A DNA stretch of 64,000 bases from Candidatus Babelota bacterium (lineage in GTDB: Bacteria; Babelota; Babeliae; Babelales; Vermiphilaceae), in NCBI GenBank assembly GCA_013287855.1, contig JABDCY010000001.1:2277-66276 (forward strand), written 5' to 3'. The notes beneath the pieces are model-generated. The model saw only the letters and a program-made list of their open reading frames with translations, was not told where the DNA came from and made no database searches. Made by a program: the position numbers and the translations under genes. This document shows, in pieces, positions 5,896 to 50,723 of the stretch. Numbering within the stretch: position 1 is the stretch's first letter; each line of letters begins with the position of its first letter.

Positions 5896-5923
5896 CCGTT
5901 CATGGTGAGCTTAGTCGAACCAC
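5896..5923 (-). repeat. 28-nt REP-like unit (family consensus ATGGTTCGACTAAGCTCACCACGAACGG), reverse orientation
   Basis: ccgttcatggtgagcttagtcgaaccac. Intergenic, between leuS and the Nudix-like gene. Confidence 0.8.
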
Positions 5924-6060
5924 ACTTTACTTAGAGTAAGCAAATATCATTTTTTTACAATATTTAAGTCTCTTCTATGTCGTCTAAAAACTTGTTAATA
6001 TACAAGACCAGTAAGTTTTGTATTAATTGAGATTATAGTGAAAAATTCTAGGACCATTTC

Positions 6061-6687
6061 ATGAATAAACAACTCAACACACAAGCAGCACCAAAATTAC
6101 ATGATGAGCGCATTCTTGTCGTACCTCGTTCGCAGCTGTTTGCCCAAGGAAGTTGGCATGGCATACAACAAGTTGATTTTACCGAATATCTAGCCATCAT
6201 TAGCGACCATAAACAATTTTTATGGCGCTCAGCCATGGAAGAAGACCCAAGCTACAAGCAAATTATCCCTTATCTTATTTATCAGTACCAAGACCGATAT
6301 TTTGTCATGCAACGCCGCCATGATTCTTCTTCAAAATCATTGCAAAATAAATTTTCACTGGGTATTGGTGGTCACATTCGACAAGAAGATATGGCGTCTG
6401 ATTCATTATTTGATTGGGCAACACGCGAATTTCATGAAGAAGTGAGCTACACGGGTTCATTGAGCATCAAACCACTTGGCATCATTAATGATGACACTAA
6501 TGACGTGGGCAAAGTGCATCTGGGTTTTGCAATGTTATTAACGGGTGATTCTGCCGAAATTGCCATAAAGGCTGAGCATAAAAGCGGTACACTCATGACT
6601 TTAGATGAATGTGCTGCGTTATATGATCGCATGGAGACGTGGAGTCAGATGGTGTTTAGCTTGCTAAGTTCTGCGAATGCTCAATGA
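6061..6687 (+). CDS. NUDIX-like hydrolase (non-canonical Nudix box)
   Basis: GIGGHIRQED...REFHEEV resembles G-x5-E...REUxEE but with a longer spacer. The N-terminal ERILVVPRSQLF region is typical of MutT-related predicted phosphoesterases. Confidence 0.5.
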   Translation: MNKQLNTQAAPKLHDERILVVPRSQLFAQGSWHGIQQVDFTEYLAIISDHKQFLWRSAMEEDPSYKQIIPYLIYQYQDRYFVMQRRHDSSSKSLQNKFSLGIGGHIRQEDMASDSLFDWATREFHEEVSYTGSLSIKPLGIINDDTNDVGKVHLGFAMLLTGDSAEIAIKAEHKSGTLMTLDECAALYDRMETWSQMVFSLLSSANAQ

Positions 6688-6761
6688 ACACTGAAAACAT
6701 TTTTTCTTCTATTCTTTTTTTCGTTAAGGGTTCGTCTATTTAACAACTAACATTAATTTAT

Positions 6762-6789
6762 CCGTTCGTGGTGATAATAGTCGAACCAT
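6762..6789 (-). repeat. 28-nt REP-like unit, reverse orientation
   Basis: ccgttcgtggtgataatagtcgaaccat, 75 nt downstream of the Nudix-like stop. Confidence 0.8.
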
Positions 6790-6826
6790 AATTCCCAGTA
6801 ATTTTTTTCACTAACTTTTTCTTGTC

Positions 6827-7284
6827 GTTAAGGGCCTTGTCGCCCTTAACAATCGACACCAAGGCTGCTGCCCTGGACCCGCTCATTTCGCTCGAACGGT
6901 GCCCACTCGCCTAACGGCTGCGGGTTACCCATGCTCTGCACCAACTTTCATCAACATCGTACCGGCGAGATTTAAATCAATGGAATTGGTACGCGACTCA
7001 CCGGCAAGTAGGTGCATGGTGTTCGCATGGCACCTGCGAGCGCAACCTGCCGTTACCGAATTTATAAATATAGCTGCCGACCTAGCTTGACGTGTGGGCA
7101 TGATAGCACCACCCGTCCTTCCCTCGCCTCGAACTTGAGGTGGGTGCGTAATCATGCGACCCCGAAGCGACTTGTCCTACGAAGCCTTAGCGCAGTAGGA
7201 AGTCGCGTGTGGCCACACTTCAAGCGTAGGGATTCCAAAGGAACTCCTTTGGCGTCCATTGCTAAGGGTGACGAGACCCTTAGC
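6827..7284 (-). repeat. GC-rich mosaic non-coding element, copy A (inverted relative to copy B at 15312-15882)
   Basis: Bounded by hairpins gttaagggc-cttgtc-gcccttaac (6827-6850) and gctaagggt-gacgag-acccttagc (7261-7284). Its reverse complement shares identical blocks of 39, 24, 29, 31 and 39 nt with copy B. ORFs inside are not frame-conserved between the copies. Confidence 0.85.
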
Positions 7285-7319
7285 AAAAAAAAGCAAGAAA
7301 TGGAGAAAATGTGCTCGTT

Positions 7320-7343
7320 GTTAGGGGTGGCAAAACCCCTAAC
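7320..7343. repeat. TAAGGG/CCCTTA-type hairpin module (variant TAGGGG)
   Basis: gttaggggt-ggcaaa-acccctaac followed by an A-run. Same architecture as the hairpins that bound the mosaic elements. Confidence 0.6.
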
Positions 7344-7446
7344 GAAAAAATCCCATATCTTTGAACAAAAAAACTATGGAATAAGAAAATAAGTCTTGTT
7401 AAAGTATTGGTGTAATATTTACTGATCTAAAAATTAGAGAGCTGAG

Positions 7447-8064
7447 ATGAATTTTACTTATTTTTACCCTTTTGTTATCATATTTCTCATGACAAATACT
7501 CTTATACAAGCCAATAACTCGCAACTCGTTGATATCAAATCCATTATTCCCGACATCGTCTTAGATATCCGCTACGCAACTACGAATAACTTCACTAAGC
7601 AAAAAGTATATTCACGACCTTGCTGTTACCTGCAAAAAACGACTGCTGAAAAACTATGCAAAGTACACAAAGAACTTGCAGAGCTTGGATTTGGCCTAAA
7701 AATTTTTGATGGTTATCGTCCACTTTCGGTGCAAAAAATTTTCTGGGATGTGGTTCCTGATTCTCGTTACGTGATGCCTCCCCATAAAGGGTCAAAGCAC
7801 AATCGAGGAAGCGCTGTTGATCTGACACTGGTCACGAAAGATGGCAAAGAAGTTCCTATGCCGACCGAATTTGATGATTTTAGTACTAAGGCACATCGAG
7901 ATTATAAAGATCTGCCAGCACACATTATTGCCAATCGTAATCTACTTGAACGCGTGATGCACAAACATGGGTTTAAAGGACTGCGCACCGAGTGGTGGCA
8001 TTTTGATGATGTTGATTGGCAAAAATACCCACTGCTTGATATTTCCTTTGAAAAATTAACCTAG
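7447..8064 (+). CDS. ddpX: D-alanyl-D-alanine dipeptidase (VanX/DdpX, peptidase M15D) with N-terminal leader
   Basis: Zinc-ligand motifs SKHNRGSAVD (H-x6-D) and EWWHF (ExxH). Leader MNFTYFYPFVIIFLMTNTLIQA. Confidence 0.85.
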   Translation: MNFTYFYPFVIIFLMTNTLIQANNSQLVDIKSIIPDIVLDIRYATTNNFTKQKVYSRPCCYLQKTTAEKLCKVHKELAELGFGLKIFDGYRPLSVQKIFWDVVPDSRYVMPPHKGSKHNRGSAVDLTLVTKDGKEVPMPTEFDDFSTKAHRDYKDLPAHIIANRNLLERVMHKHGFKGLRTEWWHFDDVDWQKYPLLDISFEKLT

Positions 8065-8084
8065 ATTATCTCATTCAAATGTAA

Positions 8085-8116
8085 AAATACCCTGCTAATT
8101 AGCAGGGTATTTTATT
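8085..8116. terminator. bidirectional rho-independent terminator
   Basis: aaataccctgct-aatt-agcagggtattt with flanking A/T runs, between convergent genes (ddpX on plus, 8190-8561 on minus). Confidence 0.7.
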
Positions 8117-8189
8117 AACAACCAGTGGCTTTTTACAGCATTATTTTTATAATCTGATACTTCATTCAAAAATCTCTCATTTTCTCTTT

Positions 8190-8561
8190 TTAACTTACGG
8201 TAATCACTGGCACTGCAATGCAGGTAAGCTTCATGCCACCACACGCTTCAAGCCCTTGATTATTTTCTTCAACCGTTTCTTCTCGTTCCCATACCATGTT
8301 CAATTGAGAATCCATTACAACATCTTCATTTTTGAGAACTTGAACAACAACTTCTGCACCATCTTCATTTTCGCGCGTTAGTTGTAGGGTTATCGTATAA
8401 CCTTCGGTCTTAATTGTTGTTAGGGCATCAGCTGATAGGGTTGTGTCATTTTCCACGACAACCATATCGTTATTAACTAATTTGGCACGGATCATAATAT
8501 CTGCATTCATTGCTGAGCAAATAAGTACCAATGGAAACACGGCAAACAACTTCCAATTCAT
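8190..8561 (-). CDS. secreted hypothetical protein
   Basis: ATG at 8561 preceded by GAGGAGA. Leader MNWKLFAVFPLVLICSAMNA. The track ORF extends to a GTG at 8576. Confidence 0.55.
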   Translation of the reverse strand: MNWKLFAVFPLVLICSAMNADIMIRAKLVNNDMVVVENDTTLSADALTTIKTEGYTITLQLTRENEDGAEVVVQVLKNEDVVMDSQLNMVWEREETVEENNQGLEACGGMKLTCIAVPVITVS

Positions 8562-8782
8562 AGAAAATCTCCTCACGCTTATAACTACTTGTTTAATATG
8601 CTGCTCATTTTTGTCCGACTTCGCTATTCATCTTCACCATAAGCTATTAGTAAGACTTAAAGCTACGTCGTGACTATCACGCCTTAGCTCGCCATTGCCT
8701 GAAAGGCTATGGTGTAGCGGCGGCGGATGAAGCTAGCTGGTGTTATGAGGACAGTATAGGGAAGAAGTTTTTGCCTAGCAAG

Positions 8783-8815
8783 GAAAAACCCTCTTGTAAT
8801 TAAACAAGAGGGTTA
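8783..8815 (-). terminator. rho-independent terminator of the DEAD-box helicase gene
   Basis: Minus strand: aaccctcttgt-ttaatt-acaagagggtt followed by tttttcc. Confidence 0.7.
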
Positions 8816-8822
8816 TAATTTT

Positions 8823-8866
8823 ATGGTTCGATACGATTTGCTTTGCAAATCACTCACCATGACCGG
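8823..8866 (+). repeat. 28-nt REP-like unit split by a nested 16-nt palindromic insert
   Basis: atggttcga[tacgatttgctttgcaaatca]ctcaccatgaccgg. The insert contains gatttgc/gcaaatc. Located 12 nt downstream of the helicase stop. Confidence 0.65.
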
Positions 8867-8877
8867 AGGGTTGTGGT

Positions 8878-10584
8878 TTAACGACTATAGCGTCTTCTAC
8901 CATACTCACGCTCACCACCACGTTCACGGTCAAAGTATCGGCCTCCACCACCACGCGGGGCAAAGGAACGAGAAGCACGAATGTCTTCGAATGGACCTAC
9001 AGCAATGCGTATTTTTTGGCCTAGCAAACGCTTGTGTTTAAGTTCTTCAGCTAATGCTGAAGCAATATGCGTTGGAACTACCACAAAACTACGTTTGTTA
9101 ATAACACGGATTCGTTCAATGAGTCTGGCATCGATCTTGTCTGAAGCACAGAACTGCATAATATCTTGTTGGGTCACGCCATCTTCTGAACCCATATGCA
9201 CAATAACTTCTTGCTTGTCTTCACGCACAACGCCGCCACGACCAGCATCAGCTGAAGAGCCAAAATTGATATCATGATCAGCATCATAACCTTGAAGGAA
9301 CTTATCATTGAGCATTTGAACACAAACTTGTGCAAGTTGATCATGCGACAACAGATTAATTGTTTCGCGCAAATCGGATGTCGCGTTATTTTTGGTCGCC
9401 GGCTTATCAAGTGCTGAGGTTAGGTAATTTTTTGCTTGTGTGGCTCGCGCCTCTAATACTTCAGTCATTTTTGGCACTTCGATCGGGTTAATGCTTGCAT
9501 TAAAGCGGCGTGCTACTTGTTGCATACGACGAACATCACTTCTACCGATGAAGGTAATTGCGATGCCCTCTTTACCTGCACGGCCGGTTCGACCGATACG
9601 GTGTACATAACTTTCTTGATCTTCAGGCAATGAAAAGTTAATGACGTGGGTAAGGCCAGAAACATCGATGCCGCGTGCAGCAACATCGGTTGCTACGAGG
9701 ATACCAAATTCTTTATTTTTAAATTTAGTGATTACGGCATTACGCATGTTCTGATCCATGTCACCATGCAGCGCATTCACACCGTAGCCACGCTTTGACA
9801 GCGTTTCAGAAACTTCACTTGCCAAGATTTTTGTCTGGCAGAAAATAAGACCATAGAAATCGTCAGCTTTATCAATAAAGCGGCATAACGCAGGAAGTCG
9901 TAAGCGAGATTGCACAACGCAGTAATATTGCTGGGTATTGGAAGTAGTTGTTTGTTGCTTGGTTGTTTTAACTACCACAGGATTTTGCATATGCTCTGCT
10001 TTAAGATCTTCAATGCCCTGTTTTACGGTAGCCGAGAACAGCCAAATATTGCGATTTTCAGGAGCAAATTCTAAAACTTCGTTAATTTCTTCTCTAAAGC
10101 CCATATCAAGCATGATATCAGCTTCATCAAGAACTAAGGTTCTAAGGTCTTTCAGCGATAGCGATTTGCGACGCAGGTGGTCATTAAGACGCCCTGGCGT
10201 GCCCACAATAACCTGAGCTCCTTGGCGCAAATCCCTGAGCTGACGCTCGATGGAAACGCCACCATAGATTGGAACTACTCTAATTTGGGTGAATTGGGCA
10301 GCTTTGGATAAACTTTCACAAATCTGTAGAACAAGTTCACGAGTTGGAGCAACAATAAGCGCTTGTGGCTTATAGAGCGTTTGATCGATTAACTGCAGTA
10401 ATGGCAGACCAAATGCCAAGGTTTTACCGGTGCCGGTTTGGGCTTGGCCATGGAAATCGATCGTTTGTTTTTCCAGAAGCATTGGAATTGCTTTTGCTTG
10501 TATTTCAGTAGGGGTTGTGAGACCTAATGTCTCAAGAGCACGTTGTAATTCGGTGGATAATAAAAAATCTTTAAATGATGACAT
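8878..10584 (-). CDS. deaD: DEAD-box ATP-dependent RNA helicase (DeaD/CsdA-like) with C-terminal RNA-binding extension and RGG-like tail
   Basis: Motifs AQTGTGKT, PTRELV, TPGR, DEAD, SAT, ARGID and HRIGRTGRAG. C-terminal tail APRGGGGRYFDRERGGEREYGRRRYSR. Confidence 0.92.
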   Translation of the reverse strand: MSSFKDFLLSTELQRALETLGLTTPTEIQAKAIPMLLEKQTIDFHGQAQTGTGKTLAFGLPLLQLIDQTLYKPQALIVAPTRELVLQICESLSKAAQFTQIRVVPIYGGVSIERQLRDLRQGAQVIVGTPGRLNDHLRRKSLSLKDLRTLVLDEADIMLDMGFREEINEVLEFAPENRNIWLFSATVKQGIEDLKAEHMQNPVVVKTTKQQTTTSNTQQYYCVVQSRLRLPALCRFIDKADDFYGLIFCQTKILASEVSETLSKRGYGVNALHGDMDQNMRNAVITKFKNKEFGILVATDVAARGIDVSGLTHVINFSLPEDQESYVHRIGRTGRAGKEGIAITFIGRSDVRRMQQVARRFNASINPIEVPKMTEVLEARATQAKNYLTSALDKPATKNNATSDLRETINLLSHDQLAQVCVQMLNDKFLQGYDADHDINFGSSADAGRGGVVREDKQEVIVHMGSEDGVTQQDIMQFCASDKIDARLIERIRVINKRSFVVVPTHIASALAEELKHKRLLGQKIRIAVGPFEDIRASRSFAPRGGGGRYFDRERGGEREYGRRRYSR

Positions 10585-28526: not shown

Positions 28527-28550
28527 GTATATTTTTCACTGCTATTTAAT

Positions 28551-29235: not shown

Positions 29236-29253
29236 TTTTCTCTTCTCTTAATT

Positions 29254-32545: not shown

Positions 32546-32567
32546 CATACAAATAGATGAGGTGACG

Positions 32568-34165: not shown

Positions 34166-34177
34166 AGCTATTTTATC

Positions 34178-35485: not shown

Positions 35486-35494
35486 TGTCAGAAA

Positions 35495-36915: not shown

Positions 36916-37320
36916 ATGAATAGCAAGATGCTGATTGCCTTATTATTGGGCGGAATGAATTTGAGTTGTATCACCAACGGGATGTTTAAATTAGAGAAAC
37001 AATCAATTCCATCTGACCCTAGTTATAAACAATATTCCTATGATAAATCAGGTTGGGGACTATTTCATATAAGTTATTCTCCTCAGGATAAATATATTGG
37101 AATTGGATTTGATCTCGGTCCAACTGATAAATATAAAGAGAGGTATATAAACTTGGTCTATAACTTAAAAACTAACGGAAAAACGTATACAGGAGATGCA
37201 CAATTTTGGAAACAATCACCAAAAGGGTACGGAGAATATTTCCTCGTTGATGACTCCACAAAATCATTATTACTTGAAGTTGCTAATGAATTCATGCAAT
37301 CTGACAATTTCAAAAAATAG
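36916..37320 (+). CDS. secreted hypothetical protein
   Basis: AAGGAG SD and leader MNSKMLIALLLGGMNLSC. Confidence 0.5.
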   Translation: MNSKMLIALLLGGMNLSCITNGMFKLEKQSIPSDPSYKQYSYDKSGWGLFHISYSPQDKYIGIGFDLGPTDKYKERYINLVYNLKTNGKTYTGDAQFWKQSPKGYGEYFLVDDSTKSLLLEVANEFMQSDNFKK

Positions 37321-37411
37321 TAATATTTTGTTCCTATCCAACTTAAAATAATCAGTAACTCAATTGATTTAAAAAGTGCTCCATTATGTAACGAGGGGCA
37401 CTTTTTGTCCT

Positions 37412-38936: not shown

Positions 38937-38937
38937 T

Positions 38938-40020: not shown

Positions 40021-40034
40021 AGCTCCTCCTTCTG

Positions 40035-41315
40035 CTATTCAGATAAACTCGCTACTAATGTTTGCACATGATGATGCCAGGTATAGTGCGCTACTATTTT
40101 TTCTCGTGCTTGAGCACCAAGAGCGGTGCGCTGCTCATGCGAAAGTTTCATGACAAAATTGAGCGCTTCCACAAATCCCTCAACATCGTCCGGCTTTACC
40201 ACTATACCAACGTGACTGCCAAGCTGTACAGAGTGTTTTTGCAAATCTTCAATTTTGATGGCAGGCGAAAGAACTTCCGCCAGTTGTTCGATATCTGATG
40301 CAATCACCGGCTTTCCTAAGCTCATATATTCAAATAATTTTGTTGGTGAACCAAAAAATCGAGTTCCATCAGGATTAACTTGAGTCGGTGATAAAAAAGC
40401 ATCGCAGGCTGCAAGATAATTACGTGCTTGCGCTTGCGGCACCGTACCTAAAAAATGAACGCGTTCTTTGCATAGTGGCTCGCAACGCAATTCTTGTTGC
40501 AGAGAGCTGCGCAGTGGACCATCGCCGATGAGTAAGAAATGAGCCTGCGGCCAGCGGCGAATAATGGTGGGAATTATGGCAGCAAGTATATTAATGCCAT
40601 GCCAGTACGAAAACGTGCCGATAAAGCCAAATACTACCGCATCCTGCAGCCCCATAGAAGTGCGAATGTGATGGCGCTCTTGTTCTAATTTTTGTGGATC
40701 AAACTGAGTTGCATCAACGCCATTGGGATGTACAACAATTTTTGAGGCATTAACACCTTGAGCAACTAATTCATCTTTTAGTGCCTGCGAAACAACCAGA
40801 ATCGTATGCGCATAGGTGAGATTGTAATTTTCAAACCATTGCACAAAAAATCGTAAACGAACAAGCCGCTCTTTGCACCAATGTTCATCTATCCAGACTT
40901 CTGACCCGTTATATTCAAGCACCAGAGGAATGTTATAGCGTCGGCTAAGCCAAACGCCAACCACATTTAATAAGCTATAGCGTTGATAGATGAATGCATG
41001 GCTGCGCTGGGCAACTATTGATTTTGTCTTGAGAAAAAAAATAACATTAGAAAGCAGGCAAGCGAATTTGAATCCAACTTTATAGAGCCATCGCGGAATA
41101 ACAAGTGGCACCACATGTTGTGCTGGAAGTTGCGCAAGCAGATCATGCATTGCTGATGATGCAAGGTCAACTTGGTACCCAATCTGCGCAAACCCTTGAA
41201 TTACTCCAATGGTATGTGCAACTGACCCGCCAGCTTTTAACTGCTCGGTGCCAAGATCAGTACGAAGATAGAAAACGGTTCGACTAAGCTCACCGCAGGT
41301 TTTTTTTATATTCAT
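40035..41315 (-). CDS. GT4 glycosyltransferase with repeat-derived N-terminus
   Basis: GGSVAHTIGV and FLSPT...FGSPTKLFEYMSLGKPVIASD. Codons 5-12 (KTCGELSR) are encoded by a REP-like unit. Confidence 0.8.
   Translation of the reverse strand: MNIKKTCGELSRTVFYLRTDLGTEQLKAGGSVAHTIGVIQGFAQIGYQVDLASSAMHDLLAQLPAQHVVPLVIPRWLYKVGFKFACLLSNVIFFLKTKSIVAQRSHAFIYQRYSLLNVVGVWLSRRYNIPLVLEYNGSEVWIDEHWCKERLVRLRFFVQWFENYNLTYAHTILVVSQALKDELVAQGVNASKIVVHPNGVDATQFDPQKLEQERHHIRTSMGLQDAVVFGFIGTFSYWHGINILAAIIPTIIRRWPQAHFLLIGDGPLRSSLQQELRCEPLCKERVHFLGTVPQAQARNYLAACDAFLSPTQVNPDGTRFFGSPTKLFEYMSLGKPVIASDIEQLAEVLSPAIKIEDLQKHSVQLGSHVGIVVKPDDVEGFVEALNFVMKLSHEQRTALGAQAREKIVAHYTWHHHVQTLVASLSE
41277..41299 (+). repeat. 28-nt REP-like unit (partial) inside the 5' end of a GT4 CDS
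   Basis: ggttcgactaagctcaccgcagg followed by T8. Confidence 0.75.
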
Positions 41316-43267
41316 TTAATCCCATGAACTAATAAATTCTGCAATGCCCACAAGTGATAGGAATAATCCGGCGAACCAGGTTTCTGATTTTTGTTGAACA
41401 TAGTTTCAATAACCTTGATATCAAAATAATCTTTCATAGCATTGCGTGGATCATGCAACAAATCGTTAAAATATGGTTTAAAATAATGGCCTTCTTTGAA
41501 CCAGCGCGTAGTTGGTGCAGCAAAGCCCATTTTTTTACGATAAATTACATCATGAGGCAAAATTCCCTCGCATGCTTTTTTAAGAATATATTTGGTAATA
41601 CCGTTTTTAAATTTAAGTTCTTGGGGAATTTGTAAGGCAAATTCAACGAGCTTGTGATCCAAAAAAGGCACCCGCCCTTCTACCGAGGTTGCCATGGCCA
41701 TTTTGTCAACGCGCATAAGCAACAATTCTGGTAAGCGATGCTTAAGCTCCAAATAAATCATGGTTTTTAAAAAATCAGCGTGCGGATCTTGAGCAAGTAA
41801 CTTGGCCCGATGATAAGCTGCCAAGAAATGACTATCAAATCCTTGTTCAAAGCCTGGATAAATAGCTTCAACAATTGGGTCAAAAGGAGCATCCGTCATG
41901 TTCACAAATGTTTTTTTCCACTCTTCACCAAATACTACCGTGCCGCTCCAGAACAGTGCACGGTCGTGCGCCCAATTATTAAGTACTGCTAAGCGACTAT
42001 ATTTTTCGGGAAATATGGTAGAAGCTGCCGAATAGCATGCGCGGCGAGCAAAAGCAGGAATATAATTTTGTGTTACATGCCATGACTTTTGCATGGAAAG
42101 ATATTGCCCATAAAAACTGTAGCCACAGAATAGTTCATCAGACCCTTCACCAACTTGCACCACGGTAACGCCAGAATCCTTGAGTAGTTTGGCAACATAA
42201 TAGAGCGGAACACATACACAATCACCAATCGGTTCGTCCTGGAAATAGACCATGCGCTCAAAAAAATCGAACGCCTCTTTTTCTGAGATAATTATTTCAT
42301 GATGGTTGGTATTAAAATGGCGCGCTACTTTGCGTGCCCAATCAATTTCGTTATATTCCGGCCCATCAGAAAATGCGACGGTAAAGGTATTAATATCGGT
42401 AATAACTTCTGCCATCAACGCAACATTCAAACTAGAATCGATACCACCTGATAAAAAAACACCAAACGGAACATCAGACATCATCTGCTGTTGTATGGCG
42501 TTGCGCAAAAGGGTACGAATTTGGCGTATACAAAACTGTTCATCGGAAAGTAATGTTTTGTCATATTCGATGGCCGGTTTTACAGGAGAATACCATTCAT
42601 GGAACGTAATGTTTTTGTGCGCATCAACCTTGCAATAAAAACTTGCGGGCAATTTGTAGATGCCTTCATACAACGTCATAGGTGCCGGCGTGGCCAAATA
42701 CGTTAAATAATGATATAGCGCATCCTGCTTAATCTGCCTTTGGATCCAGGGCAATTGCCACAACGCTTTAATTTCTGAAGCAAAGCTCAGCACGCCGCCT
42801 TGTAGAGAAAAATATAAGGGCTTTATGCCAATGCGGTCACGAATGAGAAAAAGTTCTTGCGTTCTAAAATCAAAAATGATGATGGCAAACATCCCATCAA
42901 AGCGATCAAGAGCTTTAATGCCCCATTCTTTATAGGCATGTAAAATAGTTTCCGTGTCAGAATTTGAGCGATAGGTATAGCCAAGATCTTGCAGTTGTTG
43001 TTTCAGCTGTGGATGATTATAAATTTCTCCATTGCAGCAAACAAGAACAGTATGTTCTTCATCAATCATGGGCTGAAACCCAGCTTGGGATAAATCCATG
43101 ATGCTCAGTCGACGATGCGTAAGGCCAAGTTGGTGCTCTTGAGAAGTCCAGATGCGATAGCCATCGGGGCCGCGGTGCGCAAGACTTGCTTGCATAGCCT
43201 CAAGCAGTGCACTATCTACAACAAAAGATGATCGTGAGATATTAAAGAAACCAGCAATACCACACAT
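41312..43267 (-). CDS. asnB: asparagine synthase (glutamine-hydrolysing) family amidotransferase
   Basis: N-terminal nucleophile MCGIAGFF, PP-loop FLSGGIDSS, 651 aa. Confidence 0.9.
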   Translation of the reverse strand: MCGIAGFFNISRSSFVVDSALLEAMQASLAHRGPDGYRIWTSQEHQLGLTHRRLSIMDLSQAGFQPMIDEEHTVLVCCNGEIYNHPQLKQQLQDLGYTYRSNSDTETILHAYKEWGIKALDRFDGMFAIIIFDFRTQELFLIRDRIGIKPLYFSLQGGVLSFASEIKALWQLPWIQRQIKQDALYHYLTYLATPAPMTLYEGIYKLPASFYCKVDAHKNITFHEWYSPVKPAIEYDKTLLSDEQFCIRQIRTLLRNAIQQQMMSDVPFGVFLSGGIDSSLNVALMAEVITDINTFTVAFSDGPEYNEIDWARKVARHFNTNHHEIIISEKEAFDFFERMVYFQDEPIGDCVCVPLYYVAKLLKDSGVTVVQVGEGSDELFCGYSFYGQYLSMQKSWHVTQNYIPAFARRACYSAASTIFPEKYSRLAVLNNWAHDRALFWSGTVVFGEEWKKTFVNMTDAPFDPIVEAIYPGFEQGFDSHFLAAYHRAKLLAQDPHADFLKTMIYLELKHRLPELLLMRVDKMAMATSVEGRVPFLDHKLVEFALQIPQELKFKNGITKYILKKACEGILPHDVIYRKKMGFAAPTTRWFKEGHYFKPYFNDLLHDPRNAMKDYFDIKVIETMFNKNQKPGSPDYSYHLWALQNLLVHGIK

Positions 43268-43268
43268 A

Positions 43269-43964
43269 CTACGTCCTTATGTTATCAATTCTCCACACGC
43301 ATATTCGTTTACCGTGTCGTTTCATTTCTGGCTCAGCTGAAAGTTCTTCGAATGATATAATTGGTTCAGGAAAATTAAAAGGTTCTTTTTGCAAGTTTAT
43401 CGGACGATAATCGCCAGTCCGAATATCACAATCATTTGCAATTATACGAGTAAAGTTTGAAGTAAACAAATAGGTGATGCCGCTTTGTTTAAAATTGCGG
43501 ATCGTTTGCATAATTTCATTATATGATAAATGAATTAAACAATCTCGACATAGTACGGCTTCAACTTTTGGTAGATGATCACGCGTGATATCTAAGCACA
43601 AAAAGCAGCGTTGCTCATTGCCATAACGCGCCTGATTGCGATCGATAAGATCGGCAACAATATCAACACCAATATAGAGATCAAGATCGAGGTTAAGCTC
43701 TTTCATCCAATTAAAATCTCCGCAACCTGCATCAAGAATTGTATGAATATTAAGCAATGTAGTCATAGCAGGCAACATCGTGCGCAAACTTTTGGTAGCT
43801 TCAAGGGTTGAGCCTGGCCCAGAACAAGATTCTGTTTCTTTCCAGTGATTGGACTGATAGATATAGTTGAAAACCTGTGATCGCCAGAAGTCTGAATTCT
43901 CTGCTGCTTCATGGGCAATGAGTGCTCGATGACTCAGACAGATGAGTATTAACAATTTCTTCAC
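43269..43964 (-). CDS. class I SAM-dependent methyltransferase with N-terminal leader
   Basis: GTG start after AAGGAG. Leader MKKLLILICLSHRALIA. Motif I ILDAGCGDFNWM. Confidence 0.65.
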   Translation of the reverse strand: MKKLLILICLSHRALIAHEAAENSDFWRSQVFNYIYQSNHWKETESCSGPGSTLEATKSLRTMLPAMTTLLNIHTILDAGCGDFNWMKELNLDLDLYIGVDIVADLIDRNQARYGNEQRCFLCLDITRDHLPKVEAVLCRDCLIHLSYNEIMQTIRNFKQSGITYLFTSNFTRIIANDCDIRTGDYRPINLQKEPFNFPEPIISFEELSAEPEMKRHGKRICVWRIDNIRT

Positions 43965-44142
43965 ACATTACTCCTTGGAGCTTCTTTTCTAGTATTCGTG
44001 CAGCTTAGCAATCACAAACAACTACGTAAAGAATGGACGGTAATCAATTTTTTTATACCAAGGCTTGCAATTTACATAGCATTCCATGTTTCATGAGTTG
44101 CGTTGAGTAGTTTTTTTACCATTCATACTCAAGGAGAAGCTC

Positions 44143-44625
44143 ATGAAATATGGAGTGAACTTCAGATCGAGATATGTATTAATTGCACTATTTTTGCTAC
44201 CTGCATTGCAAGCCATGGATCATGTCAAAACTATATTCGAGGTATTTGATGAGGAGCCGCCAAAAAATCTTGATTGGGAAACTTTAACATCAAACAATGC
44301 AACATCAAGAAGCCGTTCAAATTCGGAAACATTACCCACACAACGTAACGGAACCATTCCACAACACTGGCGCCAACTTAATCAGCAATATACAGATAAT
44401 TTATTAAGAAAATTAACCGCCGAGGAACTTAGAAATCGCGAACTACAACGTCAATTGGATGAGCTAAAACAACAATTAGATGCTACAACTAACCATCTCG
44501 CCACGGCACAGAAAAAAATTAGCGAGCTCACTAATCCTGAAGATTTAGAATCACAAAAAAAGACACAAGCAGGAAAGACAAGAAGGCATACTTACGGTCT
44601 TGTCAAGAACCGGAGCGGTGAGTAA
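44143..44625 (+). CDS. secreted coiled-coil hypothetical protein
   Basis: AAGGAG SD, leader RYVLIALFLLPALQA, heptad-like ELRNRELQRQLDELKQQLD. Confidence 0.5.
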   Translation: MKYGVNFRSRYVLIALFLLPALQAMDHVKTIFEVFDEEPPKNLDWETLTSNNATSRSRSNSETLPTQRNGTIPQHWRQLNQQYTDNLLRKLTAEELRNRELQRQLDELKQQLDATTNHLATAQKKISELTNPEDLESQKKTQAGKTRRHTYGLVKNRSGE

Positions 44626-45347
44626 ACAAGGCGCAGATAAACCAGCGTAGCAAGCATGCGCGGTCCTGAACTCATAAAGCGCAATTTGCTGCCCGTCTGA
44701 TCATACCACACGGTGGGAATTTCTTTGGTGCCAAATCCATACTTTTTACACAGATACAAAAGTTCAACATCAAAAGCCCATTGTTTAAGCCGCATCGAAG
44801 AAACTACTTTTTCGATAACTTCTCGCTTAAACACCTTTGCACCACATTGGTAATCATGGTAGTTAATTCTGAACAATAATCGCACCAATGATTCATAGAA
44901 CAGTTTGCTGCCCCACCGCTTGATGCGCGGTCGCGGCGGAAAGAGTTTTGCTGCGGGCGCATACCTGCTTGCAATAGCTCCATGATGCGTTGACAAATGC
45001 GGAATCAATTCATAAAAATATTCTGGCCGTGTTGCCATGTCAGCATCCACAAATCCGATCATGGTATTATGCCGCGTGAGCGCATCAGCAAAACCAGCAA
45101 TCACCGCAAGGCCTTTGCCAGCTTCAGGGCTAACAATGCTGCGAATTTCTGAACCCCACAGTCTTTGGGCGTCGTCCACAACACGTTGCGTGTTATCGGT
45201 GCAGCCGTTGAGCACTACCAGAATTTCAAAATCAAGCTGTTCTTCTTGTTTTTTTTGCATAAAAAATTGAGCATACGCATCGAGCGTTTTACCAATGCGT
45301 TGCTCTTCGTTATGGGCAGGAATAATAATGCTAATTTTTTTCATCAT
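44592..45347 (-). CDS. GT2 glycosyltransferase (dolichyl/polyprenyl-phosphate glucosyltransferase-like)
   Basis: ISIIIPAHNEEQRI, VVLNGCTDNT and FVDADMATRPE. The track ORF starts at GTG 45356. Confidence 0.8.
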   Translation of the reverse strand: MMKKISIIIPAHNEEQRIGKTLDAYAQFFMQKKQEEQLDFEILVVLNGCTDNTQRVVDDAQRLWGSEIRSIVSPEAGKGLAVIAGFADALTRHNTMIGFVDADMATRPEYFYELIPHLSTHHGAIASRYAPAAKLFPPRPRIKRWGSKLFYESLVRLLFRINYHDYQCGAKVFKREVIEKVVSSMRLKQWAFDVELLYLCKKYGFGTKEIPTVWYDQTGSKLRFMSSGPRMLATLVYLRLVYSPLRFLTRP

Positions 45348-46305
45348 CTTGTTCACTTGATGGCAGCAAGTTATAGATACCCGTGCTGGCAGTACCTAAA
45401 ATTCCTGTCCATTTTACATACCAAGGAATTCTAGCGACTATTGTGCGAAGTGGATTTTCTTCATCGAGCCTAGATGATTGCGTATCCACAAGCAACAAAA
45501 CTCCTGAAACGGTAAGCCAACTAAGACCTCGTGGAACTGAAGAGGAATTTAATTTTTTTGGTTGCCGATGGGGTGAGAGTTTTTTTGTCACGCTTTCTAC
45601 AGGTTCCCTTATAGCCGAACTCATTTGTGCACGTTGGTCTTTCTTTTTTTGTGTTAAATCTTTTAAGGCTATAACTGAAGTTTGGTAGATCAAAGATTTC
45701 TGCCCGACTTTATCACCCCAAGCTTCTCTATCTTTTAGAATAATTGGATTTAGAAATTGTTCGACGCTGGAACACACGGTTTTAACATCTTCATCGGTAT
45801 AATCTTGAGGCACAACTACTTTGAATGGCGTTTTGCTGCTAGCCTCCACCATAGAAGTGTTTATTAATGGAATGAATTCTGATTTTTGATAAGGATCTTG
45901 ATCATCATCCCCTTCATATTCAGTCCACAACGTTATAAAATTTTCAGAATCATTAATTTCTTTTTTTTCGAACAATGTTTCAATATGGGTATTTTCTTGT
46001 GCAAGTAAGTTTTGAACTGCAGTACCAACGTCTTTTAATTTAGAAGAAAGATGCTGCACCCTGCCATTTTGTTGTGCATCAAAATCTTTGAGCAGCGGTT
46101 TTGATGTAATAAAAATTCTATCGGTCGGCTCTAACCCCACATTGATTAATTTTGAAAGTCTTTGCTGCTTTGTCTCACCGTAGATCTCTAGTCTTTTAAA
46201 ATTCCCCGATTGTCTGTGCATACTTTGAGACATCATTCCAATGCTCAGACCACAGGTCAAAATAAGCACAGCGAAAATTTTAGACATCTGCATGTTGCAC
46301 CTCAT
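45331..46305 (-). CDS. hypothetical protein with N-terminal leader and C-terminal hydrophobic segments
   Basis: ATGA overlap with the upstream gene. Leader SKIFAVLILTCGLSIG. C-terminal LSWLTVSGVLLLV and WTGILGTASTGIY. Confidence 0.5.
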   Translation of the reverse strand: MRCNMQMSKIFAVLILTCGLSIGMMSQSMHRQSGNFKRLEIYGETKQQRLSKLINVGLEPTDRIFITSKPLLKDFDAQQNGRVQHLSSKLKDVGTAVQNLLAQENTHIETLFEKKEINDSENFITLWTEYEGDDDQDPYQKSEFIPLINTSMVEASSKTPFKVVVPQDYTDEDVKTVCSSVEQFLNPIILKDREAWGDKVGQKSLIYQTSVIALKDLTQKKKDQRAQMSSAIREPVESVTKKLSPHRQPKKLNSSSVPRGLSWLTVSGVLLLVDTQSSRLDEENPLRTIVARIPWYVKWTGILGTASTGIYNLLPSSEQDDEKN

Positions 46306-47747
46306 CGCATTTTGAATTTTTTAAGCCCAATCAAACTCATGCATGCCAACAAAACTCCTCCCTGAAATCTGCTAATTTGCGAGGTTCCATATGCTCTGCT
46401 TTTGTAATGCACGGGCATATCAACAATTTTGAGGTTAAGTTTAGCAGCACCAAAAAGTAAATCAAAGTCGCCGTACGGATCAAAATCACCAAAATAGTGA
46501 CGATTGGCAACAATCGCCTCGTAATCCTTTTTAAACAGCACCTTGGTGCCGCAAAGCGTATCTTTGATTTTTTGATTCAACAACCAGGTGAAAATGAGTG
46601 AAAATCCATAATTGGCAAGCAGATTCAAAAACCGCATCGCTTGATTTTCCATGCCATACACAAGGCGTGAGCCGTTGATGAAATCTCCTTTGCCACGCAT
46701 GAGAGCATCAAAAAATTTCGGCATTTCTTCTGGCGGTGTCGTAATGTCACCATCCAAAATCATAAGAACATCGCCGCGTGCATGTGCAAAACCTTTGCGG
46801 ACCGCGTCGCCCTTTCCTTTGCCATCTTGCACAATATACTTGATATCTTTTTCTGGATATGTGGCAATTACCCGCTTGATTTCATCCAAAGTACCATCTT
46901 TGGAATGGCCTTCTGCAAAAATAAATTCGGTGTGTTTACCCATGATAGGTGTTTGCGTGATTGCAGCTTCCACATTGCCCCGCTCATTGCGGCAGGTAAT
47001 TATTACCGACACCACATAATCACGCGGATTACGTGCAACAGGAAGTGGACGTGCAACCACCCACTCATGCAAACAGAGACGATTGATGCCGGGAATAAGT
47101 GCCAGAATACTATTGAAGAACCAAGAAATTAACGGAATATTAATAGGTATCAACGTATGCCATCCCGTAATCACGGGTTCAAAATCAGCAAGATGCAAAA
47201 AATTAATCAGATCTTTGTGGGCAATCCAATTTTTGAAGGTGGTGGGTCGCCGCAAGCCTAATTTTTGAGTAAGTCGTAGCAGCGGCTCCCAAAAATAGGA
47301 ATACGAATCGATCACGAGCCGAGTGCCGGGGTGACAAAATGGTTGAAGGGACACAAAAAGATCTTGGATGTCATACGTTTCTAGAGTGATAGAAGAAAGA
47401 ATGATGTAATCAAATTGTTGTGCAGAAATTTGTGCAAGATCAGTAACAAAAGTCAAATGTGGATACGTCGCCTGAGCTTCGTGCGTGTACTGCTCATCAG
47501 CATCCACACCCACACCCCATGAAGGACGCACCGCATCGAGCACATAGCCATTTTTACCATTGATTTGCAGTACTCGCCTGCCTTGTGGAATCACAAAGGT
47601 ATAAAATTTGAGCAGCTGCTTATGGTAATAGCTATTTTTTTTGAGCCAATATGAAAATGGCTGATGCCAGGTACTGCGATTATTATTTTTTACAGATTGG
47701 TCACCCAGAAGCGCTGTTTTTTGGTGATTTGACTGTTTTTGCATCAT
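46302..47747 (-). CDS. bifunctional methyltransferase-like / GT2 glycosyltransferase fusion
   Basis: N-terminal half has a class I MT-like layout (RRVLQINGKNGYVLDAV...FDYIILSS). C-terminal half has VSVIITCRNERGNVE and ILDGDITTPPEE (GT2). ATG at 47747; the ORF is open to TTG 47795. Confidence 0.7.
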   Translation of the reverse strand: MMQKQSNHQKTALLGDQSVKNNNRSTWHQPFSYWLKKNSYYHKQLLKFYTFVIPQGRRVLQINGKNGYVLDAVRPSWGVGVDADEQYTHEAQATYPHLTFVTDLAQISAQQFDYIILSSITLETYDIQDLFVSLQPFCHPGTRLVIDSYSYFWEPLLRLTQKLGLRRPTTFKNWIAHKDLINFLHLADFEPVITGWHTLIPINIPLISWFFNSILALIPGINRLCLHEWVVARPLPVARNPRDYVVSVIITCRNERGNVEAAITQTPIMGKHTEFIFAEGHSKDGTLDEIKRVIATYPEKDIKYIVQDGKGKGDAVRKGFAHARGDVLMILDGDITTPPEEMPKFFDALMRGKGDFINGSRLVYGMENQAMRFLNLLANYGFSLIFTWLLNQKIKDTLCGTKVLFKKDYEAIVANRHYFGDFDPYGDFDLLFGAAKLNLKIVDMPVHYKSRAYGTSQISRFQGGVLLACMSLIGLKKFKMR

Positions 47748-47848
47748 TATTACCTTGGTTCGGTTGATTTTTTGATCTTTCAGTATTGAAATCAATATTA
47801 AAATAAATTTCTTCCAAACATTCTCAAAGGAGCTTGATAAACCACTCG

Positions 47849-48013
47849 TTTGTCATCCTGAACTTGTTTCAGGATCCATCTCTCATAATCATCCTGATTT
47901 TAACAAATCAGAAAAATATCTAATGCATATACATTTTTAATAAAATTAATTTTACAATGCACACTCACTGGTAATTTGAAGCGTGGATCCTGAAACAAGT
48001 TCAGGATGACAAA
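47849..48013. mobile_element. MITE-like element, 165 bp, perfect 30-bp terminal inverted repeats
   Basis: tttgtcatcctgaacttgtttcaggatcca (47849-47878) is the exact reverse complement of 47984-48013. Each arm contains its own palindrome (atcctgaa/ttcaggat). The core is AT-rich and 105 bp long, with no ORF. Confidence 0.8.
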
Positions 48014-48069
48014 TCTGGGGCATTCGAAACTTAATGTCAAAATATGGAAATTTTAGCAAGATTTCACTA

Positions 48070-48504
48070 TCAGATTGTCACAATTAAATCAATAGAAAAT
48101 TCTGGGTAGATTTTTTTTACCATCGACATCATTTTTAAACTTGGATTACATTTTTTGGTCTCAAGTCGCTGATAGCTATACAGGGTGTCAAATCCCATTT
48201 TCATCGCCGCTTCTTTTTGGGTATAGCCATGCTTGATTCGCCAATACCTAACCAAAAATGAAAAAGCTATATTAGGATCCAATGAAACGTCGACGATTTT
48301 TTTTGCACTTCTTTTTACTGTTTTTTGAGGAAGCTTTGCCAAGTCCTTGGAGTTTGCATGTTCTTCGATAAAAAGATTCAAAGCTTCTTTCATGTTAGTT
48401 TCTAGTTCTTGCAACGTATCAGCTTGAGTAACGCAACCAGGTAATTCAACGCATTGCGCCCAAAATCCGCCATCTTCTTTATGTATTTGGAAATGATATT
48501 TCAT
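48070..48504 (-). CDS. hicB: HicB-like antitoxin fused to an XRE-type HTH domain, no adjacent HicA
   Basis: MKYHFQIHKEDGGFWAQCVELPGCVTQADTLQELETNMKEAL (HicB/UPF0150 fold) plus a C-terminal YTQKEAAMKMGFDTLYSYQRLE HTH. Confidence 0.75.
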   Translation of the reverse strand: MKYHFQIHKEDGGFWAQCVELPGCVTQADTLQELETNMKEALNLFIEEHANSKDLAKLPQKTVKRSAKKIVDVSLDPNIAFSFLVRYWRIKHGYTQKEAAMKMGFDTLYSYQRLETKKCNPSLKMMSMVKKIYPEFSIDLIVTI

Positions 48505-48662
48505 AAACTCTTCCACTTACCGGCATCTAATATCTCCTCATCTACAAAACATGATACCAAGTATAATTGGTAGGTCAAATACCTTGCCGAACTGCGTAGA
48601 CGGTAGTAGGTTAAAAAACATCTACCGACTATGATATACCATTATTATGCGAGGATTTCAGT

Positions 48663-49361
48663 ATGCAAAAAAAAGAAACCTTGGCAATAATGATTCTACT
48701 TATTTCTGATAGTCACCAGGTGATGACTATGGATCAAGCAACAAAAACAACAGAAGAACTTCAAAAAGAAAACCTGACGTTACGAGCTACTCTCGAAGAA
48801 TTACAACGAGGCACACAACAAATATTAGAAACTACTAGAGCTGTGCAAAAAGAACTTTCTGCTTTGCCGCGCACAATTTCCCTCAAGACAGACATGAGTA
48901 AACTCGAAGGTCGATTAGAAAAAGCAGAACATGATATTTTGGCGATTCCCACATTACAGGGTCAGCAAGAAACAACCAAGAAAGAAATACAGCAGTTACA
49001 AGGTGCTACAAAAAACGTTGGTGCCACCGAACAAAAAGTTGTGAATTTGGAAATTCAGTTCCGTGATCTTCCTCAATTGCGCGACCATTGTACGCGGCAT
49101 CAAAAATTAGAAGACGACATTCTTGACTGGCAAGCCCATCAACGCTTTCTGGGTGCCATCAATGCAAAAAATCCCCAAAACGAATTAGAAATCTATACAT
49201 TGAAACTCGGTAAAATCTATACTCAGTTGCGACTGCAGGAATTGGGCGATAAAATTGCCGAAACGCAAGGTAAAGAGAAAGAGCTTCCTCAGCAAAAGTC
49301 GGTAATTGGATTTTTGAAAGATTTCATGTTCGGTACAGAAAAAAAATTGGATGAGATATGA
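48663..49361 (+). CDS. secreted coiled-coil hypothetical protein
   Basis: Leader KKETLAIMILLISDSHQ; long heptad-like Q/E/L-rich sequence. Confidence 0.5.
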   Translation: MQKKETLAIMILLISDSHQVMTMDQATKTTEELQKENLTLRATLEELQRGTQQILETTRAVQKELSALPRTISLKTDMSKLEGRLEKAEHDILAIPTLQGQQETTKKEIQQLQGATKNVGATEQKVVNLEIQFRDLPQLRDHCTRHQKLEDDILDWQAHQRFLGAINAKNPQNELEIYTLKLGKIYTQLRLQELGDKIAETQGKEKELPQQKSVIGFLKDFMFGTEKKLDEI

Positions 49362-49660
49362 AGAAGTTACTGTTGTTTACTCTATTTTTTATGCACAGCA
49401 ATTTTTGCATGCAAACTAAGAAACAAATAAAACTTGTTTTTACGCAAGAAGATTTTGCGGCATTATCGCACATGCCACAAGCAGAACTTCTATCAGCGTG
49501 TAAAGATCTCATGCAAAATTATAATATCTTATACGGTGAAGCAACTACATTGGTCGATTTAGCTGAACGCTCTAAGAAACTCCTGCAACAAACGATCGCA
49601 GAAAATGCTCGGCTGAAAACGTTGGTAAGCCTGAGCGCTGACAAAGAAAATCAACATTAA
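49358..49660 (+). CDS. small secreted hypothetical protein
   Basis: ATGA-type overlap with the upstream gene. Leader MKKLLLFTLFFMHSNFC. Confidence 0.5.
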   Translation: MKKLLLFTLFFMHSNFCMQTKKQIKLVFTQEDFAALSHMPQAELLSACKDLMQNYNILYGEATTLVDLAERSKKLLQQTIAENARLKTLVSLSADKENQH

Positions 49661-50520
49661 CCAACCGCAGGTTTGGCATTCGTCATCTTTTCACCCAAAA
49701 ATCGCACATAATATTCGGTTGGGTTCAAGTTTGAGGCAACCCTGGTTTGCGCACATACTTTATCAAGCGCGAGAATCTTTTTAGGGAACGGTGACTTTTG
49801 CCAGTTTTCAAAATGACAGTACGCGGGCGACAACGCTTTGGTTGGTGGATTGTTGATAAAATAGCGGTTCAAATGACTTTCATCATTAAACACCGCAACA
49901 AATCCCCGGGCCACATCGGTATCCACATTGTTCATAGTCGTGCGCACAAGACGCAAAAATTCTTCACGCGTGCCGCCGTAAAATCCACCCGCAAAATAAA
50001 ATCTACCCTCATTGCGATGAATGCATGCAGTGGAAATTGGATTGGTTTCATAGATACCACGCTCAAACAAAAATTGCGGATGGCGCACGCCGACCCGATC
50101 GCTCAAAATTTCATCACCAATCGGCGCATTAAAGAGCATGTCAGCATCAATGGCAAACAGATAATCCATGTTCGCTAATTTTTCTTGATTATTATAATAC
50201 GCATGGAAGCGCATCATGGTCGCCCATGGCCAGCCCATTTGCACCTGTGGGACTTTTACTACTCGCGGATGTTCTGGAGGAGTTCCGTCAGTGAAAATAA
50301 AATAAGTCACATTGTGATGGGTACAAAAATAACGATCGGCACTTTCGATGAGCGGAGCAACAAAGTTGATATATTTGCCGGTTGCGGTAATCAAAAGACC
50401 AATATTTTGTTTTTTTGTGGTGTCTGCACAAAATTTCTCTGGATCTTCTGGCTTGTGTCGAGCGGCAAAGAGAAAAACGCCTACAAGTAATGTGATTGTT
50501 GTCATAATAATTTTGTTCAT
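49657..50520 (-). CDS. GT6-family glycosyltransferase (histo-blood-group ABO / alpha-1,3-Gal(NAc)-transferase-like), type II anchor, DXD retained
   Basis: Collinear with the human GTA catalytic domain as recalled: [34 protein letters not shown] / [38 protein letters not shown] / [32 protein letters not shown] / [45 protein letters not shown] / [25 protein letters not shown]. N-terminal anchor [14 protein letters not shown]. Confidence 0.85.
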   Translation of the reverse strand: [287 protein letters not shown]

Positions 50521-50560
50521 AACTTGAGTCCTTTATTTGATTCAGCTTTGTTTTTTGTCC

Positions 50561-50723
50561 CCTTCGTGGTGAGCATAGTCGAACCATAACACCGAATTTT
50601 AGTTATGAAAATTTGAAATCAGTATTTTTAAGATGAGTTGTATCTTGAAATAGCACTTAATTTTTTCAGCAAATTGCTGCTTACATGAGTTCGTAATGGT
50701 TCGACTATGCTCACCACGAACGG
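50561..50723. mobile_element. MITE-like arrangement: two inverted 28-nt REP-like units flanking a 108-bp AT-rich core
   Basis: ccttcgtggtgagcatagtcgaaccat (50561-50587) versus atggttcgactatgctcaccacgaacgg (50696-50723), with 25 nt of exact inverted identity. Confidence 0.7.

Follow-up and report, generated by a model that had tools for sequence, protein, structure and literature searches.

How does a repeat of only 28 nucleotides (nt) come to lie both between genes and, in frame, inside genes that are otherwise conserved? The question is raised by a 64,000-nt stretch of a Candidatus Babelota genome (contig JABDCY010000001.1, assembly GCA_013287855.1; hereafter the window), which carries exactly eight copies of the unit ATGGTTCGACTAAGCTCACCACGAACGG, six contiguous and two split, against none in shuffled sequences. 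On balance, we favor the reading of the unit as one local representative of a widespread family of minute DNA modules that are mobile but non-autonomous, with selection filtering their copies. Three copies add residues to the products of otherwise conserved genes, namely 39 to a glycosyltransferase (GT) of GT-C-like type, 7 to a GT4, and 10 to Ndk, which supports the initial annotation in its view that the unit behaves in frame like a Rickettsia palindromic element (RPE).

A search with the 28-mer at up to three mismatches returned the copies at 5896(-), 6762(-), 13900(+), 50560(-), and 50696(+), with 0 hits in 100 shuffles. Only 41275-41302(+) was added at up to eight mismatches, the shuffles again giving 0, and a half-unit search with halves at most 160 nt apart found the split copies 8823-8866(+) and 27298-27403(+) only. 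Both kinds of search together recover the eight dispersed copies that the initial annotation had listed. Its start positions hold in general, except that the copy assigned to 50561 begins at 50560 and that the copy at 41277 is a partial unit of approximately 21-25 nt. The net inserts of the two split copies do measure 16 and 78 nt, but the insert at 8823, described as GC-rich, is TACGATTTGCTTTGCAAATCA, an AT-rich 7-bp hairpin. The internal GTTCG/CGAAC stem ascribed to the unit found no support, as the folding of the six plain units does not exceed that of shuffles (z from -0.25 to +1.4). An independent Logan assembly of SRR8434665 has exactly the same sequence over 9989-15371, a region that takes in the copy in ndk, which rules out an assembly artefact as the source of the repeats.

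In-frame copies in three conserved genes

Four of the six reading frames of the unit are open, and the antisense copies in the GT-C-like and GT4 genes are both read in frame -3. The longest addition is found in the GT-C-like protein, for which 61 homologues were found. Compared with 16 aligned homologues (40-59% identical), the 39 extra residues (PFYSVRGDP...LGRTI) are unique to the window protein and are flanked on both sides by conserved blocks with many invariant columns. Since the homologues lack this segment and its flanks are conserved, the segment has been inserted, and the gene is not split or decayed. An AlphaFold model based on 56 sequences has a mean predicted local distance difference test score (pLDDT) of 90.2 and a predicted template modelling score (pTM) of 0.88; the pLDDT falls below 50 only at residues 103-131 and 133-140, which correspond to the insert, and averages ~90 in the rest of the protein. 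Foldseek matched the model to AglB, PglB, STT3, ALG3, PMT, and ArnT with a probability of ~1 but TM-scores of only 0.3-0.46, and the label "GT-C-like" appears reasonable for the predicted fold. Judged from the model, the insert extends the first extracytoplasmic loop by a disordered stretch, and the gene is intact. An in-frame repeat of about 35 residues had been proposed for just this loop; the possibility that the open reading frame (ORF) might be two genes or a pseudogene finds no support, the ORF being continuous, conserved, and confidently folded.

The GT4 (40035-41315, -) begins with MNIKKT[CGELSRT]VFYLRTD, and its closest homologues begin with MKKT(I/V)LYLRTD. The 21 nt that encode the seven extra residues are a partial unit, so that the in-frame copy expected near codons 5-12 is real, with its residues at positions 7-13 and missing from the closest homologues. 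No alternative start is available to this ORF in frame, and the ATG that it uses overlaps with the stop of asnB. The named homologues of this GT4 are from Dependentiae or Babeliales, at only 47-49% identity.

In ndk (13897-14439, +), whose NDK domain starts at residue 47, the unit provides ten in-frame codons (13900-13929) right after the first ATG (13897). Among these codons are another in-frame ATG and those for the n-region, with its arginine, of a signal peptide of lipoprotein-like type (IFYSLLVLIAGLFLSSC). The encoded N-terminus reads MMVRLSSPQAG and is followed by a hydrophobic core and an LSSC lipobox-like motif. The long ndk ORF is taken as real because the closest single-domain Ndk homologues (~47-58% identical) likewise have hydrophobic N-terminal stretches of about 20-55 residues, and with this comparable extension the claim of a unit in the first codons of the extended ORF (MVRLSSPQAG) stands. 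The arrangement is suggestive of an Ndk that, in this lineage, is exported or tethered to the membrane, and that in the window would be lipoprotein-like (LSSC). The homologues considered for such a signal or anchor extension were P0266, P0277, P0288, P0293, P0297, P0313, and P0267.

The relatives of the GT-C-like protein and of the GT4 thus lack the repeat-encoded residues, and the homologue comparison supports the earlier inference of a modular, RPE-like system that remodels protein termini and loops. A scan of the window for GC islands, judged by eye, revealed no other repeat-like candidate for an in-frame module insertion.

Nested modules and a unit shared across phyla

In the two split copies of the window, the extra DNA takes the place of the variable loop center. 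The copy at 8823 is laid out as ATGGTTCGA-TAC-[GATTTGC TTT GCAAATC]-A-CTCACCATGACCGG and folds with z = -3.4, a figure that includes a second hairpin with the 3' flank. The 106-nt composite in the GT-C-like gene consists of host unit halves at 27298-27307 and 27391-27403, a B-like hairpin at 27307-27363 that holds a further nested hairpin, and an inverted CCC/GGG-type unit core at 27370-27390. The sub-module AGCGAAGSCTGGG, which this composite had been said to share with a second hairpin repeat, module B, is indeed present in exact form at 27307-27319(-) and 15786-15798(+).

Insertion of the same family was found in a GT-C-like homologue from another organism, P0035 (positions 314-1849 of locus L059, GCA_004196315.1 contig SDBT01059966.1), where 53 residues have been added in frame and independently, at a different position that lies later in the protein and between two transmembrane helices. 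The inserted DNA reads ATGGTTCGA-TAC...ACTCACCACGAACGG, then CCGTTCGCCC...GTCGAAG, and both its split point and its TAC junction are those of the 8823 copy. A search with the insert peptide of the window protein returned one protein, P0334 (56 aa, on a 75-kb contig of the Joint Genome Institute, JGI), in which the composite lies between unrelated flanks. Its occurrence at this second locus means that the 106-nt composite is itself a repeated unit, and it probably reached the GT-C gene already nested. Two caveats apply to the idea that the unit hosts nested inserts: the composite recurs elsewhere, and the "insert" at 8823 matches a long-loop variant that L059 has as well.

Differences between paralogous elements are also seen within the window. 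The two copies of a ~585-nt element are ~92% identical over the longest aligned arms and differ by two modules, a unit of the wider superfamily and a module B hairpin, both of which are found in copy 2 and not in copy 1 (Table 1). The same module pair occurs side by side in a Babeliales metagenome-assembled genome (L015). On the basis of these modules and of the named GT4 homologues, the source organism is probably a member of Dependentiae.

In soil metagenomes and genomes, the identical 27-mer lies inside a 133-bp MITE (miniature inverted-repeat transposable element) whose terminal inverted repeats (TIRs; CAGACTGTGTGAAAAC) are perfect and 16 bp long and whose target duplications measure 4 bp (TCGG, TCGT, GCGG, CCGC, ACGA, and others). 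This MITE always sits in the loop of a GTCATTCCGAGCG...CGAGGAATGAC-type hairpin repeat, and units and related modules were found opened at the loop tip by other modules. The constant position of the soil MITE in the hairpin loop of another repeat indicates that insertion at hairpin tips is a general habit of these repeats, which matches the split copies of the window. The MITE contains two superfamily units and was seen in soil bacteria (GC 0.52-0.60), at loci L098-L150 and at many of L001-L057 (e.g., L028, L003, and L109).

A scan of one genome per species with the pattern GGTTCGACTANNNTCACCRYGAA yielded 57 loci. At positions left free by the pattern, 51 of the 57 hits complete GCTCA, 45 have AT before GG, and 35 have the CGG tail. 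About 50 of the loci are therefore true members, and L008, L010, and L022 look like coding-sequence coincidences. The record titles of the 57 loci name Binatia, Acidobacteriota, Chitinophagales, Poribacteria, Udaeobacter, Alphaproteobacteria, Gottesman- and Microgenomates, Sulfuricurvum, Babeliales/TM6, "delta proteobacteria", Zixibacteria, Kiritimatiellia, Bdellovibrio, Ignavibacteriae, Chloroflexia, Dehalococcoidia, KSB1, planctomycetes, and Methylobacter. Altogether, the hosts of the superfamily belong to at least 15 phylum-level groups with 27-73% GC (0.27 to 0.72 for the 57 scan loci), and the isolate Sphingomonas parapaucimobilis carries the exact unit, unannotated, on two plasmids. The initial annotation was right about the modularity of the repeat system but overlooked that the unit extends beyond one lineage, being part of a cross-phylum superfamily.

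The architecture of the unit was derived from 134 distinct 38-nt units (95 loci plus the window), in which the 14-nt loop TTCGAC-N3-GCTCA is invariant, being fixed by the search. The loop is closed by a covarying stem of 3-4 bp and followed by a 3' tag, YGAACGG, which is conserved at 79-91% per position. The three inner stem pairs are paired in 89-96% of the sequences with 52-60 double-sided changes per pair; this covariation was not matched by any of 500 shuffles, and slid controls fall from 0.41 to 0.15 or less. The stem triplets, counted as nine types, are TGG/CCA, CCC/GGG, GGC/GCC, TCC/GGA, CAC/GTG, TGC/GCA, GCC/GGC, and CGG/CCG, with CAT/ATG and GTC/GAC as singletons, and further subtypes are present within the same 57 loci of the genome scan. 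The left complement of the tag, CCGTTCR, exists in only about one third of the units, where it extends the stem to a hairpin of 10-12 bp. Inverted doublets of ~70-100 bp are common in high-GC loci, with 19-50 nt between the matched units. The two units of a doublet usually have different stems, so that it is each unit's own small helix that is kept. The covariance models of Rfam 15 gave no relevant match in the window or in 14 unit-rich loci, and a search of the accessible literature with unit DNA strings, loop 14-mers, and spurious peptides found nothing relevant.

Phages were considered as a vehicle and rejected. The window-type pattern has 0 matches in IMG/VR, and the looser superfamily pattern matches 38 contigs there, mostly with a GC content of 0.62-0.74, some of which may be prophage regions of sequenced genomes, judged by their IMG identifiers.

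Relation to known repeats and competing explanations

RPEs of the RPE-1 type are reportedly long palindromes of ~100-150 bp that occur in Rickettsia only. The window unit resembles them in that non-coding repeats lie in frame within functional-looking genes, the added residues fall in loops or termini, and no transposase is linked to them; it differs in being 28 nt, barely palindromic in this genome, and cross-phylum, and by size and weak palindromy it is unlike RPE-1. Like the unit, the small dispersed repeats (SDR) of cyanobacteria are very small (~20-30 nt), nest in one another, occur within genes, and have no known transposase. They are not known outside cyanobacteria, nor are they known to share the sequence of the unit. 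A resemblance to the Tn3 inverted repeat, GACGCTCAGTGGAACG, was dismissed, since the orientation is opposite to that of an element end and the terminal GGGG is missing. A tRNA-derived origin, suggested by the loop TTCGA and by the CACCA end of the window type, was rejected as well, as the CCA is part of the covarying stem and is replaced by GGG, GCC, and others in other subtypes, there is no T-stem, and neither ARAGORN nor Rfam reported anything.

The QMITE1 and QMITE2 elements of Coxiella burnetii (Wachter et al. 2018, PMC5896051) are likewise small and non-autonomous, live in an intracellular bacterium, and add residues in frame at protein ends. They are, however, longer TIR elements restricted to Coxiella, and the loop 6-mers TTCGAC and GTCGAA are not in the text of that article. 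A further comparison is offered by the repetitive extragenic palindromic (REP) and REPIN elements with their REP-associated tyrosine transposases (RAYTs; Bertels and Rainey 2011, PMC3116915; Di Nocera et al. 2013, PMC3733652), which share with the unit a short hairpin, an unpaired conserved tag at one end, covarying stems, and frequent inverted doublets. REPs also lie at times inside genes, as in Opitutus terrae and R. conorii (PMC3733652). In contrast, the tag of the unit is YGAACGG/CCGTTCR instead of GTAG, with no GTAG adjacent to the unit stem; its stem of 3-4 bp encloses a 14-nt loop instead of the 6-13 bp and mostly 2-5 nt of REPs; and it is near-constant across phyla, whereas REPs are largely specific to a species or genus. 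The CGTC-type REPs, among which Di Nocera et al. (2013, PMC3733652) count Neisseria dRS3 and RPE-4/-6, resemble the unit in spanning several phyla, having no dedicated transposase, and including intragenic copies. Their features as given there, namely a CGTC/TGTC tag, an 8-9 bp stem starting with AT, a 4-5 nt loop, and a CCA tail, are all absent from the unit. By tag, stem, and loop length, the unit falls outside both the GTAG and the CGTC families of REPs, and the name "REP-like" first given to it is only loosely true, as there is no stable palindrome, no GTAG/CGTC tag, and no RAYT gene detected in the window. A textbook CGTC-type dimer lies elsewhere in the window as a perfect inverted pair (47851-47878(+) and 47984-48011(-), 105 nt apart) with the sequence TGTC-ATCCTGAA-CTTGT-TTCAGGAT-CCA, comprising an 8-bp stem that starts with AT and a 5-nt loop.

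In-frame repeats as such are established biology; what stands out here is how unexpectedly broad the spread of the unit is and how constant its sequence, along with clean cases of co-option. The favored reading of the unit as mobile DNA draws on the insertions, the presence/absence differences between paralogous elements, the repeated composite, the cross-phylum spread, and the covarying stem. New copies would arise by transposition catalyzed in trans, with the enzyme encoded elsewhere in the genome or lost. Such an enzyme might recognize a single strand in folded form, with hairpin and tag, in the way that HUH/Y1 enzymes recognize REPs, or might alternatively move units within larger TIR elements. 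Selection would remove every gene-breaking insertion. The copies of the window are mostly "half" units next to gene starts and stops. The three coding copies would survive because they keep the frame and occupy tolerant sites, two at N-termini and one in a disordered extracytoplasmic loop.

Several results weigh against this reading. No direct repeat that could be a target-site duplication flanks any window copy, and the case for mobility comes from homologues and paralogous elements compared at the sequence level, instead of from empty and filled orthologous intergenic sites. Within the 64 kb of the genome covered by the window, Pfam detected no transposase or RAYT domain in ORFs of at least 90 aa, and no gene family recurs beside the units in the 57 genome loci; a recurrent neighbor was considered there as a candidate transposase and rejected, as only generic transporters and regulators recur. 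Since the plain window units are unstable as hairpins, a hairpin-dependent mechanism would need fuller copies. Near-identity across phyla is uncommon among elements of the REP type, whose divergence normally follows that of the host. Finally, each of the four copies located upstream of a gene is in sense with it (n = 4), from 173 nt upstream to an overlap with the start codon, a bias that could hint at function rather than pure selfishness.

Such a function is the core of one alternative, in which the unit is a cis-acting signal, an RNA or single-stranded DNA hairpin bound by a conserved host factor, for example for mRNA stability, translation start, or termination, and its presence in genes is incidental. 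The sense orientation of the upstream copies would fit, as would the ATG that the unit furnishes in ndk, the tRNA T-loop-like start of the loop (TTCGA), and the little variation of the 14-nt loop and 3' tag across phyla while the stem covaries. We nevertheless hold it to be quite improbable: no Rfam family matches, a stem of 3-4 bp that closes a loop of 14 nt has little thermodynamic stability and the folding of the window copies is no better than that of shuffles, the antisense copies lie in two 3' regions and two coding regions, and orthologous genes manage without units. Nesting in other repeats and differences between paralogous elements are, moreover, insertion behavior. Slightly better placed, although still unlikely, is the explanation that the units are cargo or debris of larger DDE-transposase elements (TIR MITEs and doublets) and that single half units are fragments decayed by deletion or recombination. 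The identical unit within the soil MITE and the high-GC units that form the two arms of doublets speak for it, as do the window copies, most of which lack the left arm and do not fold, and the inverted pair of copies 7 and 8, which measures 164 bp with its units 108 nt apart, has 31-nt arms that are 94% complementary, and carries a private loop variant, TATGC, in both copies. The TIR of the soil MITE, however, has 0 matches in the window at up to three mismatches. In the GT4 and ndk, the insertions amount to only 21 and 30 nt, their borders are clean and in frame, and nothing of a larger element is seen; no single carrier comes near the unit in spread or equals it in conservation.

The explanation that the coding copies are ancestral or due to chance, that their host ORFs are pseudogenes or mis-called, or that the repeats are assembly artefacts is contradicted by the data and has hardly any probability left. 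It could appeal to the internal ATG (M45) of ndk, which has a good Shine-Dalgarno sequence, and to the warning of Di Nocera et al. (PMC3733652) that many N-terminal "intragenic" repeats are annotation errors. Homologues without the repeat-encoded residues stand against it, together with the continuity, two-sided conservation, and confident GT-C-like fold of the GT-C-like ORF, the GT4 start that has no in-frame alternative and overlaps asnB, the N-terminal hydrophobic extension that the relatives of Ndk have as well, the same sequence in an independent assembly, and the 0 copies in shuffles.

Beyond the preferred reading of the unit as mobile DNA, we tentatively raise the possibility of an undescribed, pan-bacterial class of "tagged loop" mini-elements (14-nt loop, 3-4 bp stem, and YGAACGG) that insert at hairpin tips and can be co-opted as coding sequence. 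The near-identity from Dependentiae and the candidate phyla radiation (CPR) to Acidobacteriota, Binatia, and Alphaproteobacteria might then reflect either one widespread enzyme or host factor with the loop as its target, or unusually promiscuous horizontal spread. If the unit is indeed mobile DNA, Rickettsia-style selfish repeats in working proteins extend to a probable Dependentiae (TM6) genome, with the disordered 39-residue loop of a membrane glycosyltransferase and the ten post-ATG codons of a secreted or anchored Ndk as clean cases. Almost letter-for-letter sharing across phyla and across very different base compositions, combined with a covarying stem, would be unlike the usual REPs and would point to a common recognizing machine. 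The conserved loop and tag make an easy genome-wide probe, by which the question of the enzyme becomes testable through phylogenetic profiling. In practice, the units seed spurious "MVRL...", "FDFAQ...", and "LSEVEG..." ORFs and lengthen gene calls; the MVR... ORFs pointed out by the initial annotation do exist, for example at 50288-50587(-) (99 aa).

Settings of the copies in the window

The positions and settings of the individual copies and of the two modules specific to copy 2 of the ~585-nt element are listed in Table 1. Copy 8 is the sole window copy with a recognizable left arm (GTTCGT). Apart from the inverted pair formed by copies 7 and 8, the remaining six copies stand singly. Four of the eight copies fall within a glycan-synthesis cluster at ~26-63 kb.

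Table 1. Unit copies and related modules in the window, with their genomic settings.
Feature	Position	Strand	Setting
Unit copy 1, GTGGTTCGACTAAGCTCACCATGAACGG	5896..5923	-	24 nt upstream of the leuS start codon, sense with leuS
Unit copy 2, loop variant TATTATC	6762..6789	-	74 nt 3' of the stop of ORF 6061-6687, antisense
Split long-loop copy	8823..8866	+	11 nt 3' of the DEAD-box helicase stop, antisense
Unit copy 4	13900..13929	+	30 nt = codons 2-11 (MVRLSSPQAG) of the 180-aa Ndk precursor
106-nt composite	27298..27403	+	inside the GT-C-like gene 26115-27713 (-), frame -3
Partial unit	41275..41299	+	41277-41297 (21 nt) encodes CGELSRT, GT4 residues 7-13, frame -3
Unit copy 7	50560..50587	-	39 nt upstream of the GT6 gene start, sense with GT6
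Unit copy 8	50696..50723	+	173 nt upstream of ORF 50897-51172, sense
Superfamily unit GTGGACTTTATCCTGAGCCTGTCGAAGGG (+ strand: CCC-TTCGACAGGCTCA-GGA)	15715..15743, ~29 nt	-	in copy 2 of the ~585-nt element, not in copy 1
Module B hairpin ACTACTTTACCCAGGCTTCGCTTTGCTCCGCCTGGGGCC	15769..15807, 39 nt	-	right after the CGAACGGTG motif; copy 2 of the ~585-nt element only

The two copies of the ~585-nt element, 6817-7292(+) and 15305-15892(-), are inverted, GC-rich, and non-coding, and flank an 8-kb housekeeping block with genes for a dipeptidase and a helicase, rpsA, and ndk. The element is bounded by TIRs of ~41 bp built on a GTTAAGGG-N8-CCCTTAAC hairpin, and strong folding is predicted for its core (z = -6.1). 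Rfam gave no match, the two copies have no ORF in common, and the element could be either a MITE or a gene for a structured RNA. The unit at 6762 was considered as a part of this element, which was rejected because the homology between the copies begins only at the TIR.

Approximately half of the window ORFs of at least 90 aa have no Pfam match at E <= 1e-5, which fits a poorly characterized lineage such as Dependentiae. A 9-nt tandem array of ~5 CTCCAATTA-like copies occupies 2559-2610(+) inside ORF 2441-2899, which is without a Pfam match. The very large glycan-biosynthesis cluster (~26000-63000) encodes five GT2 enzymes, two GT4 enzymes, the GT-C-like protein, a Wzx-type flippase, and numerous methyltransferases and epimerases. 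Further members are one enzyme each of the GT6 (PF03414) and GT61 (PF04577) families, which are best known from eukaryotes.

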